Of a stretch of DNA of 5,367 nt, positions 2,119-5,367 are shown in pieces. A program made the position numbers and the translations under genes. Below the pieces are notes generated by a model. It ran no database searches. It was given only the letters and a program-made list of their open reading frames with translations, and was not told the DNA's origin. Source of the stretch: an archaeon. Lineage in GTDB: Archaea; Iainarchaeota; Iainarchaeia; Iainarchaeales; CSSED10-239. Each line of letters begins with the position of its first letter. The first letter of the stretch is position 1. The stretch spans positions 1-5,367 of the forward strand of contig JBAWVI010000065.1 in the NCBI GenBank assembly GCA_037147375.1, written 5' to 3'.

Positions 2119-2165
2119 GGATCCTGAAAACCCCTTGATTTTCATGAGACCGAAACCGGTTGAAG

Positions 2166-2240
2166 TGGGAATGGCAGGATTTGAACCTGCGACCCTTGGT
2201 GTATAAGACCAATGCTCTAACCAGGCTAAGCTACACTCCC
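2166..2240 (-). tRNA. tRNA-Ile, anticodon UAU (decodes AUA)
   Basis: Minus strand folds by hand into a 75-nt cloverleaf: GGGAGTG TA GCTT AGCCTGGTTA GAGC A TTGGT CTTATAC ACCAA GGGTC GCAGG TTCAAAT CCTGC CATTCCC A. Acceptor stem is 7 bp (one G-U), D stem 4 bp, anticodon stem 5 bp, T stem 5 bp with a TTCAAAT loop, discriminator A. The anticodon loop C-U-UAU-A-C gives anticodon UAU. No CCA is encoded. Confidence 0.9.
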
Positions 2241-2288: not shown

Positions 2289-2582
2289 TTATTGCTTTTC
2301 AGAAAATTCTCCAAACCTTCCTAAATTAACTCTTAATTCTTTTTTGAATTCAGAGGAATAAAGGTTAGTGAAAGAATAGCTCTTACCAACAATAAGCTTC
2401 TCAATTGAAGCATCCCATAATGTTAGATAGATTGTGCCTGTATCATCTCCTACTTTTGCTTCACAGACTTTGTGTTCAACATTATCAAGCCTTGAAGTTA
2501 CAGATCTAAGTGGTGTTTTTTCTAAAATTTCACCAACAATATCGATCTTTTTTTGGTATGGTCTAATTTCCTTAATCTTCAT
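2289..2582 (-). CDS. Single OB-fold nucleic-acid-binding protein (SSB/RPA-like, hSSB1/SOSS-B-like layout)
   Basis: 97-aa ORF. The pattern IKEIRP..KKIDIVGEILEK....V.......HKVCEAKVGDDTGTIYLTLWD..IEKL.VGKSY.F.N.Y...F.....VNLGRFGE matches the one-OB ssDNA-binding layout: variable beta strands, then V.D.TG.I.L.LWD, then G....L.N......F.G...L..G. AGGAG lies immediately upstream (ggaaggagatATG). Confidence 0.6.
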   Translation of the reverse strand: MKIKEIRPYQKKIDIVGEILEKTPLRSVTSRLDNVEHKVCEAKVGDDTGTIYLTLWDASIEKLIVGKSYSFTNLYSSEFKKELRVNLGRFGEFSEKQ

Positions 2583-2653: not shown

Positions 2654-2878
2654 TTATTCGAGAGGAAAAAGGAACCAAACCAAGTATTTATTTGTTTTAA
2701 AATTAGGTGTTTCATCTACTGTTTCAAGATGAAGTTCAATTGCTTCTTTAATGTTTGTTAATAGTTCTGTAAGTGTTTCTGCATATGTGTAACAGCCAGG
2801 AAGTACAGGAACAGATGCATAATATTGTTTAGTTTCATTATCAATTTCAATAACTACATCAAATGATTTATGGTCCAT
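2654..2878 (-). CDS. HicB-like / UPF0150 family protein (antitoxin-type fold), no HicA partner
   Basis: 74-aa ORF. FDVVIEIDNETKQYYASVPVLPGCYTYAETLTELLTNIKEAIELHLE matches the HicB N-terminal/UPF0150 signature (Y.A.VP.LPGC...G.T.EEA..N.KEAIE..LE). GGTGA lies 7 nt upstream of the ATG. Confidence 0.7.
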   Translation of the reverse strand: MDHKSFDVVIEIDNETKQYYASVPVLPGCYTYAETLTELLTNIKEAIELHLETVDETPNFKTNKYLVWFLFPLE

Positions 2879-3005: not shown

Positions 3006-4070
3006 TTAATGAGGCCTTACTTTATTAAAATTAGAATTGTAAGATATAAAAAGAAAATTAAAGCTAAATAACATCTTACTTGTAATCCTATATGCATTTG
3101 CGTGCATTGTGTAACCTAAGTAACTATTTATTGATGCAAATAGTCTATACATATAAATCTTATTTGCAAGATAGAGATGAGAAAGATGTATTGTTCTTTT
3201 TTTAAATTTAATAAGATTTGATTTCCTTAATCTAACAAATAATGAGAATATTTTGTATCCCACAAAATCAACTCCATCTTTTATTAAATAAATATTTGTT
3301 TTTCTTTTAGGTATCTCAAGTAAAAGCTTAATTTTAAGAAAACGCTTAATCTTTGTTTTATACGTGTGTAATTCTTTCTTTGAACTTGAAAGTATTATGA
3401 AATCATCAACGTATCTATAATAGTATTTTACTCTAAGTTTATGCTTAATAAATTTATCAAATTCATTTAGATAGATGTTTGCAAACAACTGGCTAGTTAA
3501 GTTTCCAATTGGTATGCCTTTGTTTTCTCCAAAATCAGAATTATCACTATCAACCAGTAAGGTTATAAGATCACATACTTTCTTATCCTTGATTCTTTTA
3601 AATAATATTTGTTTAAGAATAGTGTGATCAATGGTTGGAAAATATTTTTTCACATCACATTTCAATGCATATCCGTGTTTAGCAAACGTATTTTGAACTG
3701 CTTTTTTGATAGTGATTAATCCTTTATGTGTTCCTTTGTTTTTCCTACAAGCAAAGGAATTATTAATAAAGGTTTTATCAAAAATAGGTTCAATTAGATT
3801 GCATAATGCATGTTGAACAATTCTATTTCTAAACGGAAGTGCTTTAATAATTCTTTTTTTAGGTTCAAAAATAGTAAAGCTTCTATATTCTGGTACCTCA
3901 TATTTTCCTAAAATTAGTTCTTCTTGCAAAGCAAACAAGTTTTTTTCAAGATTCATAGAAAAAATCAGAACCTCGATTGAAGATGGCTTTGCTTTTCTTG
4001 CTTTTTTGTATGCAAGGGATAAATTTTTGAAAGAAACTAATTTCTCCCAAAAATTAGTGTGTGATTTCAT
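3006..4070 (-). CDS. Reverse transcriptase, diversity-generating retroelement (DGR) type
   Basis: 354-aa ORF with RT motifs in order: EPKKRIIKALPFRNRIVQHAL (motifs 1-2), LKCDVKKYFPTIDH (motif A), GIPIGNLTSQLFANIYLNEFD (motif B region; IGNLTSQ at 3489-3509 is the DGR-RT hallmark [I/L]G...SQ that replaces the QG..SP of group II intron RTs), YYRYVDDFIIL (YVDD at 3402-3413), DGVDFVGYKI, and the C-terminal SYLGYTMHANAYR typical of DGR RTs. There is no maturase/endonuclease extension. A TR-like element lies upstream on the same strand. Confidence 0.88.
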   Translation of the reverse strand: MKSHTNFWEKLVSFKNLSLAYKKARKAKPSSIEVLIFSMNLEKNLFALQEELILGKYEVPEYRSFTIFEPKKRIIKALPFRNRIVQHALCNLIEPIFDKTFINNSFACRKNKGTHKGLITIKKAVQNTFAKHGYALKCDVKKYFPTIDHTILKQILFKRIKDKKVCDLITLLVDSDNSDFGENKGIPIGNLTSQLFANIYLNEFDKFIKHKLRVKYYYRYVDDFIILSSSKKELHTYKTKIKRFLKIKLLLEIPKRKTNIYLIKDGVDFVGYKIFSLFVRLRKSNLIKFKKRTIHLSHLYLANKIYMYRLFASINSYLGYTMHANAYRITSKMLFSFNFLFISYNSNFNKVRPH

Positions 4071-4077
4071 GTGTTTC

Positions 4078-4149
4078 AGTAATTCTTTTGTATGATAATT
4101 ATTTATTGGTTATGAAAGTTCATAAAAGAATTACTAAATCATAACCAAT
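4078..4149 (-). ncRNA. Two interleaved perfect helices (pseudoknot topology) in the TR-RT spacer, ending 8 nt upstream of the RT start codon
   Basis: Plus-strand coordinates: AGTAATTCTTTT (4078-4089) is the exact reverse complement of AAAAGAATTACT (4124-4135), 12 bp. ATTGGTTATGA (4105-4115) is the exact reverse complement of TCATAACCAAT (4139-4149), 11 bp. The order B1-A1-B2-A2 means both helices can coexist only as an H-type pseudoknot; otherwise they are mutually exclusive alternatives. Confidence 0.5.
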
Positions 4150-4196
4150 GATATTTTGTTATTTGGCGTTCTTCTGTTGTTTGATATTGATTAACC

Positions 4197-4223
4197 AACC
4201 AGGCAAATTTCTTTGCAACCAGG
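4197..4223 (-). repeat. Direct 7-mer repeat flanking a small GAAA-tetraloop hairpin in the spacer
   Basis: Minus strand reads CCTGGTT-GCAAA-GAAA-TTTGC-CTGGTTGG. AACCAGG occurs at 4197-4203 and 4217-4223 (plus strand). The 5-bp stem GCAAA/TTTGC (4203-4216) closes a GNRA loop. Confidence 0.35.
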
Positions 4224-4337
4224 AAAATATACTGATGTAGTCAACTTGAATATACATTCTTTCTTGTGTTTAAGATAAAACTAAAACTTATCCTTTCCTT
4301 TCTTTAAAAAGTACATGAACACAAAAAACTCTACAGT

Positions 4338-4365
4338 TACTATCTTTTCACTTGAAAAGATAGTA
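4338..4365 (-). repeat. Perfect 12-bp stem, 4-nt loop hairpin immediately 3' of the TR
   Basis: TACTATCTTTTC (4338-4349), actt, GAAAAGATAGTA (4354-4365). The arms are exact reverse complements. On the minus strand it begins ~7 nt after the A-free GC-rich TR end (..GGCTTTCGTTGCGTCGT). Confidence 0.7.
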
Positions 4366-4371
4366 GAGACT

Positions 4372-4518
4372 ACGACGCAACGAAAGCCGATGTTGTTGTT
4401 CGTGTTACCAGGGACGTTGTTCAAGTTCAAAGCCAACAATCCTGCGTTCGTTTCATTGTTCCAATTGCCACCACGCAAGAACGAAGAACCTCGAAGAACC
4501 GACACACAGCAGAAAACA
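4372..4518 (-). repeat. DGR template repeat (TR); boundaries approximate because no VR is available to align
   Basis: A GC-rich island in an AT-rich background. The minus-strand frame reads ..VLRGSSFLRGGNWNNETNAGLLALNLNNVPGNTNNNIGFRCVV, resembling the C-terminal CLec/FGE-type variable region of DGR target proteins (LRGGSW...NNNIGFR). There are 11 AAY (Asn) codons within 25 codons (N14-N38 of the track ORF). The frame is closed upstream by TAG (complement of 4536-4538), so it is not the end of a long target gene. It lies ~300 nt upstream of the RT on the same strand. Confidence 0.78.
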
Positions 4519-4538
4519 TATACGTCAGTATATTCCTA

Positions 4539-4557
4539 ACTTGTAATACTTACAAGT
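4539..4557. repeat. Perfect 8-bp hairpin with 3-nt loop at the 5' side of the TR
   Basis: ACTTGTAA tac TTACAAGT. The arms are exact reverse complements. Confidence 0.55.
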
Positions 4558-4582
4558 CAAAATAGATTATGAACAGTTACTT

Positions 4583-4590
4583 ATATATAC
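4583..4590 (-). promoter_or_regulatory. Candidate TATA box for the TR-RT transcript
   Basis: Minus strand ggTATATATAag. A start ~25 nt downstream would fall at about 4555-4560, at the 5' hairpin that precedes the TR. Judged on resemblance only. Confidence 0.3.
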
Positions 4591-4616
4591 CTTATTCTAT
4601 AACTAAAATCCAATTA

Positions 4617-4676
4617 AATCGTTCGATACCAACGAACAGTTTAGCTATTAATCGTTCGATGCCATCGAACGATTTA
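4617..4676. promoter_or_regulatory. Two ~27-nt direct repeats, each with internal dyad symmetry (candidate operator pair) in the divergent DGR/ATPase intergenic region
   Basis: Copy 1 is AAATCGTTCGATACCAACGAACAGTTT (4617-4643). Copy 2 is TTAATCGTTCGATGCCATCGAACGATTTA (4648-4676). Copy 2 holds a perfect 11-bp palindrome AATCGTTCGAT-gcc-ATCGAACGATT (4650-4674); copy 1 keeps only GTTCG/CGAAC. A TTATTAAT box (4684-4691) sits ~20-27 nt before the ATPase ATG, which suggests a leaderless mRNA. Confidence 0.45.
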
Positions 4677-4710
4677 AAAACCTTATTAATCATAATATAT
4701 TAGAAAATAT

Positions 4711-5367
4711 ATGATATCTAAAGAAACATTAAAAGATATACTTTTAGATCAAAAAGAGTATATATTAAGTGAAATAAAATACGTTGACAGAGATATAAAT
4801 TTAGATGAATATATTAACAATAACTTAGTTACAATTATTTGTGGAGTTAGAAGATGTGGTAAATCCACATTATTAAGAATATTTTTAAATAAAATAATTA
4901 AAAACAACCAAAATATTACTTATTTATATTGTGATTTTAGTGATGAACGCCTAAATAAATTTGAAATAGATGATTTTCAAAAGCTATTTGAAATATTTTT
5001 AGAAACATATAAAGATGGAAAGAAATATTTCTTTTTTGATGAAATACAATCTATAAATGGATGGGAAAAGTTTGCAAATAGAATGTATGAAAAAGAAAAT
5101 GCTAAACTATTTATCACTGGGTCCAATAAATCACTATTACGATCAGACACATCAACAGTACTAACTGGAAGACAAAGATTATTAGAATTATATCCTTTTT
5201 CTTTTAGAGAATTTTTAAAAATAAAACCAAACAACTTTAATATTTTAAATCTTACAACGAAAGAAAGAATGAAGTTAAGTAATTATTTTGAAGAATACTT
5301 TCAAATTACTGGATTTCCATATCCTTTAGAAATAAAAGACAAAAGAACCTTGCAAGAATATTTTAAT
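4711..5367 (+). CDS. AAA+ superfamily ATPase, COG1373-like (AAA_14 domain, normally followed by DUF4143); N-terminal 219 aa, continues past the window end
   Basis: Hand translation: MISKETLKDILLDQKEYILSEIKYVDRDINLDEYINNNLVTIICGVRRCGKSTLLRIFLNK...KKYFFFDEIQSINGWEKFANRMYEKENAKLFITGSNKSLL...LTGRQRLLELYPFSFREFL. Walker A is GVRRCGKST (4843-4869), Walker B is FFFDEIQ, and ITGS and LTGR...L.PFSF.EF are characteristic of this family. An in-frame TAA at 4693-4695 makes 4711 the first possible start. Absent from the ORF track because no stop falls in the window. Confidence 0.8.
   Translation, partial: MISKETLKDILLDQKEYILSEIKYVDRDINLDEYINNNLVTIICGVRRCGKSTLLRIFLNKIIKNNQNITYLYCDFSDERLNKFEIDDFQKLFEIFLETYKDGKKYFFFDEIQSINGWEKFANRMYEKENAKLFITGSNKSLLRSDTSTVLTGRQRLLELYPFSFREFLKIKPNNFNILNLTTKERMKLSNYFEEYFQITGFPYPLEIKDKRTLQEYFN

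Follow-up and report, generated by a model that had tools for sequence, protein, structure and literature searches.

The 11-bp helix found just upstream of the reverse transcriptase (RT) gene is likely the lower stem of a conserved hairpin in the spacer (Sp) RNA of a diversity-generating retroelement (DGR), probably the docking site of the RT, and the 12-bp helix that interleaves with it likely lies outside the conserved mechanism. We refer to the 12-bp helix as helix A, to the 11-bp helix as helix B and to the stem-loop built on the latter as hairpin B. The window, that is, the whole 5,367-nt stretch of DNA that was analyzed, contains the template repeat (TR), spacer and RT part of an archaeal (DPANN-type) DGR. 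Hairpin B is a known kind of RNA, to which the window adds a divergent archaeal member.

Searches with the RT recovered 5,881 RT homologues, the closest named ones being mostly from DPANN archaea. In contigs encoding an RT of 95% identity, the order of elements was a target gene (Laminin_G_3 plus FGE-sulfatase), two Avd genes, an ATPase gene, TR, spacer and RT, with the ATPase (AAA_14/DUF4143) encoded on the opposite strand. One of these relatives, L010, carries a TR identical to that of the window. Its 115-nt TR and its VR differ at 19 positions, and all 19 of these are adenines in the TR. As read from the sequence of this relative, such adenine-only differences are the hallmark of an active DGR. 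Together with the RVT_1 match of the RT, they confirm a claim of an earlier note on this DNA, namely, that the helices sit in a genuine TR-RT spacer. The context given there, a spacer element abutting the RT start, was also correct, with the amendment that all features are on the minus strand (Table 1). No Shine-Dalgarno sequence resembling GGAGG or GGUGA was read upstream of the RT ATG (4070), as the note had stated, whereas three neighboring genes carry one: hicB (GGTGA), an OB-fold gene (GGAAGGAG) and a tRNA synthetase gene (GGGGGA). An AT-rich, TATA-like stretch (AAUAAAUAAUUAU) is located about 30 nt upstream of the RT AUG, and other perfect palindromes are found nearby at positions 4614 to 4677.

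Table 1. Features of the DGR locus in the window (coordinates are those of the window; arrows indicate the direction of reading on the minus strand).
Feature	Position	Strand	Basis or remark
DGR reverse transcriptase gene (354 aa)	3006..4070	-	RVT_1, E=5e-25; without Shine-Dalgarno sequence
Template repeat (TR)	4368..4482	-	Identical in L010; coordinates transferred via alignment A1
Spacer (Sp) between TR and RT	4367->4071	-	297 nt; via alignment A1
Perfect 12-bp stem with AAGU tetraloop; candidate Avd-binding stem-loop	4338..4365	-	2 nt after TR
Upstream-of-TR strand of candidate cPRT-Stop duplex (AAUAUACUGACGUA)	4521..4534	-	Conserved in L013 and L014
Sp strand of long-range duplex (UACAUCAGUAUAUU, within conserved ACUACAUCAGUAU)	4226..4239	-	Candidate cPRT-Stop duplex
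Small hairpin GCAAA-GAAA-UUUGC	4203..4216	-	After the duplex strand
A-rich linker (GCCAAAUAACAAAAUAUC)	4150..4167	-	Presumably single-stranded; directly 5' of hairpin B
Hairpin B, the Sp 3' stem-loop	4105..4149	-	Perfect complement; match to model R1; covariation
Hairpin B, 11-bp basal stem	4149->4139 (AUUGGUUAUGA) with 4115->4105 (UCAUAACCAAU)	-	Perfect complement
Hairpin B, 23-nt interior	4138->4116	-	
UAGUA, 5' strand of interior loop	4132..4136	-	TAGTA invariant in alignment A5; Rfam consensuses
GAAC, 3' strand of interior loop	4118..4121	-	GAAC(C) recurs in relatives; Rfam consensuses
Helix A, 5' arm (AGUAAUUCUUUU)	4124..4135	-	Shares nucleotides with the conserved AGUA and with the apex of hairpin B
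Helix A, 3' arm (AAAAGAAUUACU)	4078..4089	-	7 to 8 nt upstream of the RT AUG; lineage specific

Direct reading and a script agreed on both helices, which are perfect and interleaved as previously described. On the plus strand, positions 4078 to 4089 (AGTAATTCTTTT) are the exact reverse complement of positions 4124 to 4135 (AAAAGAATTACT), which gives helix A, and positions 4105 to 4115 (ATTGGTTATGA) are the exact reverse complement of positions 4139 to 4149 (TCATAACCAAT), which gives helix B. Since the arms follow each other in the order A, B, A', B', the two helices interleave. One inverted-repeat search listed the 11-bp pair without the 12-bp pair; our own script scan listed both. We estimated the chance expectation from dinucleotide-preserving shuffles, in which we counted perfect inverted repeats of at least 11 bp with a loop of at most 60 nt. 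Shuffling the whole window gave 0.33 such repeats per 5.4 kb, compared to 5 in the real window. In 3,000 shuffles of the spacer region (304 nt), the probability of one repeat of at least 11 bp was 0.021, that of two was 0.0007 (about 7 in 10,000), and that of any interleaved pair of at least 9 bp was 0.001. The helix pair is real and locally unusual, and the value for two repeats bears out the statement that two such helices within 72 nt are unlikely by chance. A single helix alone is unremarkable in a genome-wide scan, because inverted repeats of 11 bp or more turn up roughly every 16 kb in shuffled sequence.

We compared the spacers of relatives at increasing RT distance. The element is 100% identical in the relatives with 95% RT identity (L007 to L012), which are therefore uninformative on covariation. 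L015, at 67% RT identity, keeps stem B with one compensatory change from U-A to C-G and one G.U change; among the close relatives, the stem is 100% paired, with one compensatory change. At L176/L178, L180, L096, L097, L016 and many loci with 39 to 50% RT identity, the sequence of the stem is wholly different. A stem of 8 to 13 bp nevertheless encloses, at these distant loci, a loop that opens with (U)UAGUA and usually closes with GAAC(C). Across the family, hairpin B thus consists of a covarying stem of this length, a UAGUA/GAAC interior loop and a short apical stem-loop, predicted in the window to be about 2 bp with a 6-nt loop. The hairpin recurs with unrelated stems in DGRs of DPANN archaea, CPR, cyanobacteria and proteobacteria. 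Of the 159 distinct regions of 160 nt that precede RT genes, 26 carry a TAGTA hairpin; the background was 52 of 10,990 control windows from the same loci (0.5%) and 27 of 3,180 shuffles (0.8%), an enrichment with a binomial p of about 1e-31. When the spacer was used as a single nhmmer query, no relative below 67% RT identity was recovered, and the conserved 19-mer AAGTTGACTACATCAGTAT was absent from all 160 more distant loci. Primary sequence is therefore useless beyond the closest clade.

MAFFT failed to place the divergent hairpins in structural register. We built a model from an in-register subset and used it for re-alignment. The resulting covariance model, R1, was derived from eight loci with RT identity of at most 61%, with the lineage of the window left out. 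Searched against the window, R1 gave a single match at positions 4105 to 4160 on the minus strand (23.1 bits, E=6e-4), and the next best had an E value of 0.45. In the alignment made with R1, 95.2% of cells were paired, double-sided changes occurred at 10 of 10 pairs, and the covariation score was 1.06 versus 0.25 in shuffles (0 of 500 reached it) and at most 0.27 in slid-partner controls; these pairing and covariation figures lean towards structure, since the alignment was fitted to the structure of the model. The sample of family hairpins leans the same way, having been selected for pairing. The non-circular support for hairpin B consists of the enrichment test and the cross-lineage match of R1. 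For the 11-bp helix, the R1 match and the changes at all 10 pairs indicate a conserved, covarying spacer structure. The covariation check on related spacers that the earlier note had suggested separated the two helices: helix B is conserved and covaries, and helix A does neither. Together, these comparisons assign the 11-bp helix to the base of a hairpin that is conserved among DGR spacer RNAs.

Perfect repeats in AT-rich DNA, located beside a TATA-like stretch and the RT start and with further perfect palindromes at positions 4614 to 4677, could also belong to a DNA-level element, such as protein-binding sites, a cruciform, the promoter architecture of the RT or a terminator of the TR transcript. 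The composition of stem B in the family argues against this. Among 19 members, we counted 164 Watson-Crick, 21 G.U and 0 A.C pairs. The asymmetry between G.U and A.C means that pairing occurs only on the RT-sense strand, and hence that hairpin B is an RNA. Furthermore, the stem varies freely while the unpaired UAGUA/GAAC is constant, which is the opposite of what is expected of a DNA operator; on these two grounds, we ruled out an operator. A terminator was rejected because the hairpin is not followed by a U-tract, either in the window or in the GC-rich members. The DNA-level and terminator readings are unlikely, and we regard a DNA-level element of any of these kinds as extremely improbable.

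The position of the RNA hairpin also differs from what a DNA element of the RT gene would show, as it follows the TR whatever the position of the RT. In L159 and L025, the gene order is RT, TR, Sp, hairpin, and in L086 (a Pseudanabaena locus) it is TR, Sp, hairpin, avd, RT. The hairpin therefore belongs to the TR-Sp unit. Its distance to the RT AUG ranges from 9 to 98 nt among the 22 hairpin-bearing lineages, and across homologues it holds no fixed position relative to the RT start or the ribosome-binding site. Gating of RT translation, which the earlier note had suggested, is not supported as the role of the conserved hairpin, given that the RT lies upstream in L159 and L025 and that avd lies between hairpin and RT in L086.

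For comparison, we used the DGR RNA of the Bordetella phage BPP-1, in which an Avd-binding stem-loop right after the TR, a template:primer duplex located at Sp A56, a "cPRT Stop" duplex formed between upstream and Sp strands and accompanied by a small hairpin and adenosines, and a single-stranded Thumb Ring have been described (Handa et al., bioRxiv 10.1101/2023.10.23.563531). In the same cryo-EM work, Sp95-139 forms a 3'-terminal stem-loop that binds the RT (bRT) and whose interior loops offer flipped-out bases to it; deletion of Sp95-139 abolishes cDNA synthesis and RT binding (bioRxiv 10.1101/2023.10.23.563531). Within the first 100 nt after the TR, that study surveyed two elements for conservation, the cPRT-Stop duplex and the Avd-binding stem-loop; the RT-binding stem-loop was outside its survey (bioRxiv 10.1101/2023.10.23.563531). 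Like the latter, hairpin B is the last structured element of the spacer after the TR, and the elements before it are a candidate Avd-binding stem-loop, an upstream:Sp duplex accompanied by a small hairpin, and a presumably single-stranded linker. The two are also alike in form, with a stem, an interior loop with noncanonical or flipped bases, a very short apical stem and a small loop. By analogy of position and architecture, the hairpin of the window is the counterpart of the bRT-binding stem-loop of BPP-1. The earlier note had described the element as a candidate functional equivalent of the BPP-1 spacer RNA needed for cDNA synthesis. Its position fits this description, and the part to which it would correspond is the RT-binding "grapple," not the self-priming site at Sp A56. 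Several differences distinguish the two systems. The stem of the window is one uninterrupted 11-bp helix, whereas that of BPP-1 is made of two stems split by a second interior loop; BPP-1 itself reads GAUUA and not AGUA; the spacer of the window has 297 nt with extra hairpins, compared to about 140 nt in BPP-1; and the host is an AT-rich archaeon, unlike that of BPP-1.

Two Rfam families extended this comparison. The spacer of BPP-1 is covered by RF03022 (Phage_DGR, formerly RT-10) with 104.7 bits. The 3' hairpin of the Phage_DGR consensus, which in BPP-1 covers Sp95-139, has a GAGUA/GAAA interior loop and a 2-bp apical stem; the corresponding loop of the window is UAGUA/GAAC. The second family, RT-14 (RF02921), was described as a motif adjoining RT genes and has no assigned function (Weinberg et al. 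2017, PMC5737381). The 3' hairpin of its consensus has a 13-bp stem, UAGUA, the apical part gc-aaaa-gc and GAAu. RT-14 aligned to three members of the hairpin family, L030, L156 and L159, with 45.6, 44.4 and 39.6 bits, just below the gathering score of 48.1, and each alignment ended exactly at the hairpin. In addition, the RT-14 consensus begins at its 5' side with CUCUacuacu..., which is similar to the sequence that directly follows the TR in the window (...CUCUACUAUCUU). The spacer of the window is about twice the length of the 144-nt RT-14 model and differs in its middle part. On these sequence features, we identify the hairpin of the window with the 3' hairpin of RT-14, and RT-14 is probably a DGR spacer RNA.

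Direct matches to the window were not obtained with either family. RF03022 and RF02921 gave no match in the window at E<=1 and none at E<=10 within positions 4050 to 4560, and Rfam scans at the element returned chance-level matches only (SNORD70 and similar). Conversely, the models built here gave no match on BPP-1; these include the broader R2, which gained few members under default filters. The link that we draw by analogy between hairpin B and BPP-1 rests on position, architecture and the Phage_DGR consensus, without a direct match. Since neither Rfam model matches the window and our own models do not match BPP-1, the window is a divergent member of the family, AT-rich and with a spacer twice as long. 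Our results suggest that the third grapple, the RT-binding stem-loop, is also conserved, with a specific UAGUA/GAA interior loop, and that this stem-loop spans DGRs from phage-type and proteobacterial ones to those of CPR bacteria and DPANN archaea. The hairpin can serve as a simple marker, defined by both sequence and structure, of the 3' boundary of DGR RNAs.

UAGUA opposite GAAC(C), with pyrimidine-pyrimidine flanks, fits what we take to be the consensus of the loop-E/sarcin-ricin bulged-G motif (AGUA opposite GAA). This motif is a common protein-recognition element. We infer that the UAGUA/GAAC loop is such a loop-E/bulged-G motif; the likeness is one of sequence alone, and the BPP-1 structure paper reports "non-standard" pairs without naming a motif.

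We propose the following role for the conserved hairpin. The Sp RNA would be transcribed on the minus strand together with the TR, and hairpin B would be its 3'-terminal stem-loop. Hairpin B probably docks the RT, its binding and its role both being modeled on BPP-1. The RT would recognize flipped-out bases of the interior loop, and this recognition would tether the TR-Sp RNA to the RT-Avd complex. Tethering would in turn permit self-primed, processive and adenine-mutagenic cDNA synthesis. The interior loop thereby offers a candidate RT-recognition site for mutation in archaeal DGRs, which have not yet been reconstituted.

The comparative results for helix A were different. Its 3' arm is identical in the relatives with 95% RT identity. 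The helix is absent from the next relatives, L013, L014 and L015, with 81%, 78% and 67% RT identity, respectively. In L013 and L014, the 5' arm is unchanged and the 3' partner arm is lost. The complementary base pairs left number 7 in L013 (p=0.21), 5 in L014 (p=0.83) and 5 in L015 (p=0.41), and among these three relatives we found no compensatory change. Pairing of the hairpin loop with downstream sequence was unremarkable in 20 of 22 other lineages; it was not enriched and is not a feature of the family. The remaining two lineages, L097 and L127, reached a p of about 0.02, which is roughly the chance expectation in 22.

These findings bear on whether the two helices form at once, as a true H-type pseudoknot that provides a compact knot needed by the RT-Avd complex. 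The arms do interleave, both helices are perfect, the 12 nt of helix A lie wholly inside the loop of hairpin B, and the crude sum of the two helix energies would exceed that of either nested fold. Such a knot would nevertheless have RT-sense loops of 3, 8 and 15 nt, and 3 nt should not be able to span the deep groove of a 12-bp helix. Moreover, to form a full helical turn within a closed 23-nt loop, the 3' RNA would have to thread through that loop. Helix A would also use up AGUA and the apical stem and so destroy the conserved part of the hairpin, and this second helix is not conserved. We therefore consider a true pseudoknot very unlikely. The pseudoknot, one of two options put forward in the earlier note, is not supported, as helix A is lost in L013, L014 and L015, shows no compensatory change and is not matched by any family-wide loop-to-downstream pairing. 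Helix A and the conserved fold compete, and on steric grounds they look incompatible; if formed, helix A would replace this fold rather than knot onto it. We therefore read helices A and B as mutually exclusive. We favor an incidental origin or a local regulatory role for helix A over a required pseudoknot, and it may be either a lineage-specific switch or an accident.

As a lineage-specific switch, helix A would be an alternative to hairpin B on a TR-Sp-RT read-through RNA. Helix A would be extended by a further UUAUG/CAUGA pairing that covers the AUG. Such a switch would make translation of the RT depend on the state of the RT-binding site or bar the read-through mRNA from serving as a template RNP. 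Folding predictions are in favor of it. The loop-to-downstream duplex of the window has an energy of -17.6 kcal/mol (z=-7.6), and none of 400 shuffles was as stable. When the local 101 nt were folded in isolation with nested pairs only, the helix-A conformer had -16.8 kcal/mol versus -13.3 kcal/mol for hairpin B, and the predicted pair probabilities were 0.92 for helix A, the dominant conformer, and 0.002 for hairpin B. According to this model, hairpin B may not be the dominant state on read-through RNA in this lineage. The extended helix-A conformer is also predicted, with nested pairs only, to pair the RT AUG, whose predicted unpaired probability of 0.18 makes it the least accessible among the 22 lineages. 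For 20 of 22 lineages, the predicted probability of the conserved stem exceeded 0.9, and a competitor was seen only in the window and L097. The lack of a Shine-Dalgarno sequence at the RT, with one at three neighbors, points in the same direction. A precedent exists in group II introns, in which the start region of the RT LtrA lies within the DIVa stem-loop; LtrA binds DIVa, its high-affinity site, and in this way autoregulates its translation. DIVa, a stem-loop close to the start codon of an RT from the same broad clade, could serve as a model for helix A; in the DGR family, unlike DIVa, the hairpin is often distant from where the RT begins.

The 85 nt upstream of the AUG (4071 to 4155) show no substitution relative to a 95% relative whose RT gene is 6.3% diverged, which would also be compatible with constraint on helix A. 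However, the TR, its upstream flank and the start of the Sp (4266 to 4589) show zero substitutions against this relative as well. The whole TR-Sp cassette is thus unusually conserved, and the substitution-free leader is not specific to helix A. The switch is further weakened by the absence of helix A from its nearest informative relatives (L013, L014 and L015), by the lack of compensatory change, and by the fact that only 2 of 22 other lineages, near chance, approach significance for the pairing at a p of about 0.02. In addition, helix A was picked from a scan, in which repeats of this length come up about once per 16 kb of shuffled sequence, and the TATA-like AAUAAAUAAUUAU could give rise to a leaderless RT mRNA that lacks the 3' arm. 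On balance, we consider a switch unlikely.

A more specific form of this idea is that helix A was acquired in this DPANN lineage as an anti-structure on the RT-binding stem-loop and lets the spacer alternate at its 3' end between two states. In the first, the RNA would be RNP competent and the start codon open; in the second, the UAGUA site and the start codon would both be sequestered. Were this so, the anti-structure would act in cis as a riboregulator, linking RT synthesis to the occupancy of the docking site or separating the mRNA and template roles of the RNA. We regard this form as doubtful. Helix A nonetheless represents a cheap, testable candidate regulator of a DGR RT, a poorly known subject. 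Apart from helix A, the loop of the hairpin is complementary at 16 of 18 positions to RT codons 72 to 77 (3840 to 3857); this pairing was not significant against codon-order shuffles (z=-0.85, p=0.2) and is not conserved, and we attribute it to chance.

The remaining elements of the spacer agree with the assignment of hairpin B as the conserved 3' stem-loop of a DGR RNA. The stem-loop next to the TR matches, in position and form, the Avd-binding stem-loop of BPP-1 (Sp3-33) and that of the 207-DGR survey of Handa et al. The two strands of the candidate cPRT-Stop duplex are complementary over 14 nt at 93% (13 of 14 bp), and the ACUACAUCAGUAU motif is conserved in L013, L014 and L015. By its position only, the A-rich linker may be the counterpart of the BPP-1 Thumb Ring, and sequence similar to AAUAUAAA occurs 5' of the hairpin in most relatives. 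The small hairpin that follows the Sp strand of the duplex resembles the short stem-loop of the BPP-1 cPRT Stop and, as revealed by RNAalifold, carries a compensatory change from G-C to A-U in L015.

The spacer between the template repeat (TR) and the reverse transcriptase (RT) gene begins with a stem-loop placed 2 nt past the end of TR. This element has the same position and form as the Avd-binding stem-loop in the spacer of the Bordetella phage BPP-1 diversity-generating retroelement (DGR). It is kept in the related loci L013 and L014 (RT identity of 81% and 78%), with an altered loop in L013. Further into the spacer, a segment of the conserved motif ACUACAUCAGUAU is complementary at 13 of 14 bp to a segment upstream of TR, and this long-range duplex strand is followed by a small hairpin that shows a compensatory change in the more distant L015. 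Together, the duplex and the hairpin look like the cPRT-Stop duplex plus stem-loop of BPP-1.

Features of the window (coordinates in nt)
Feature	Position	Strand	Details
tRNA-Ile, anticodon UAU	2165-2240	-	Rfam tRNA, 72 bits
Ssb-like OB-fold protein	2289-2582	-	97 aa
HicB-like antitoxin	2654-2878	-	74 aa
Small spacer hairpin	4203-4216	-	GCAAA-GAAA-UUUGC
Long-range duplex, spacer strand	4226-4239	-
Stem-loop after TR	4338-4365	-	perfect 12-bp stem, AAGU tetraloop
Long-range duplex, strand upstream of TR	4521-4534	-
Tandem palindromic units	4614-4677		27-nt unit, two copies
Perfect palindrome	4650-4674		12 bp

Between TR and the start (position 4711) of a divergent AAA_14 ATPase gene, the unit AATCGTTCGATnCCAnCGAACnnTTTA is repeated in tandem at a spacing of 33 nt, each copy being in itself a near-perfect palindrome. 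This is among the few spacer-flanking stretches that differ from the loci with 95% RT identity, which have CTGTTCGCTGG. The tandem palindromes may act as an operator or promoter element, either for the ATPase gene or for the transcript that carries TR.

The window contains no VR, target gene or Avd genes. Among contigs carrying exactly the same RT (L001 to L005), five of six assemblies stop 253 to 353 nt upstream of the RT start, with ends that fall inside TR or in the spacer a little short of it; these are probably assembly breaks due to the TR/VR repeat. The HicB-like and Ssb-like genes lie immediately 3' of the RT gene, a synteny shared with the 95% relatives, and no HicA partner for the antitoxin was found within the window. 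A tRNA-Ile with a UAU anticodon is an unusual decoding solution known in some Nanoarchaeota, and the one detected here would fit a DPANN host.

Assembly GCA_005795845.1 contains both L003 and a second DGR, L176, whose RT is 61% identical. The latter has its own version of the conserved hairpin at the 3' end of the spacer (stem AUAAACAGAA/UUCUGUUUAU, loop CUAGUA...). One sample or genome thus holds two diverged DGRs. In the clade of L105, L033, L103, L021 and L101, the apical region of this hairpin reads AGAUGA(A/G)GC-AAAU-GCUGAUU. Its GAUGA and CUGA elements are box C/D- or kink-turn-like, although no canonical K-turn register could be found for them. Lastly, L010, a 95% relative, carries a GC-rich hairpin (GCAACCC-GUAA-GGGUUGC, about positions 3725-3745) some 55 nt past VR, in the 3' flank of the target gene, which is reminiscent of the target-recognition hairpin beside VR in BPP-1.
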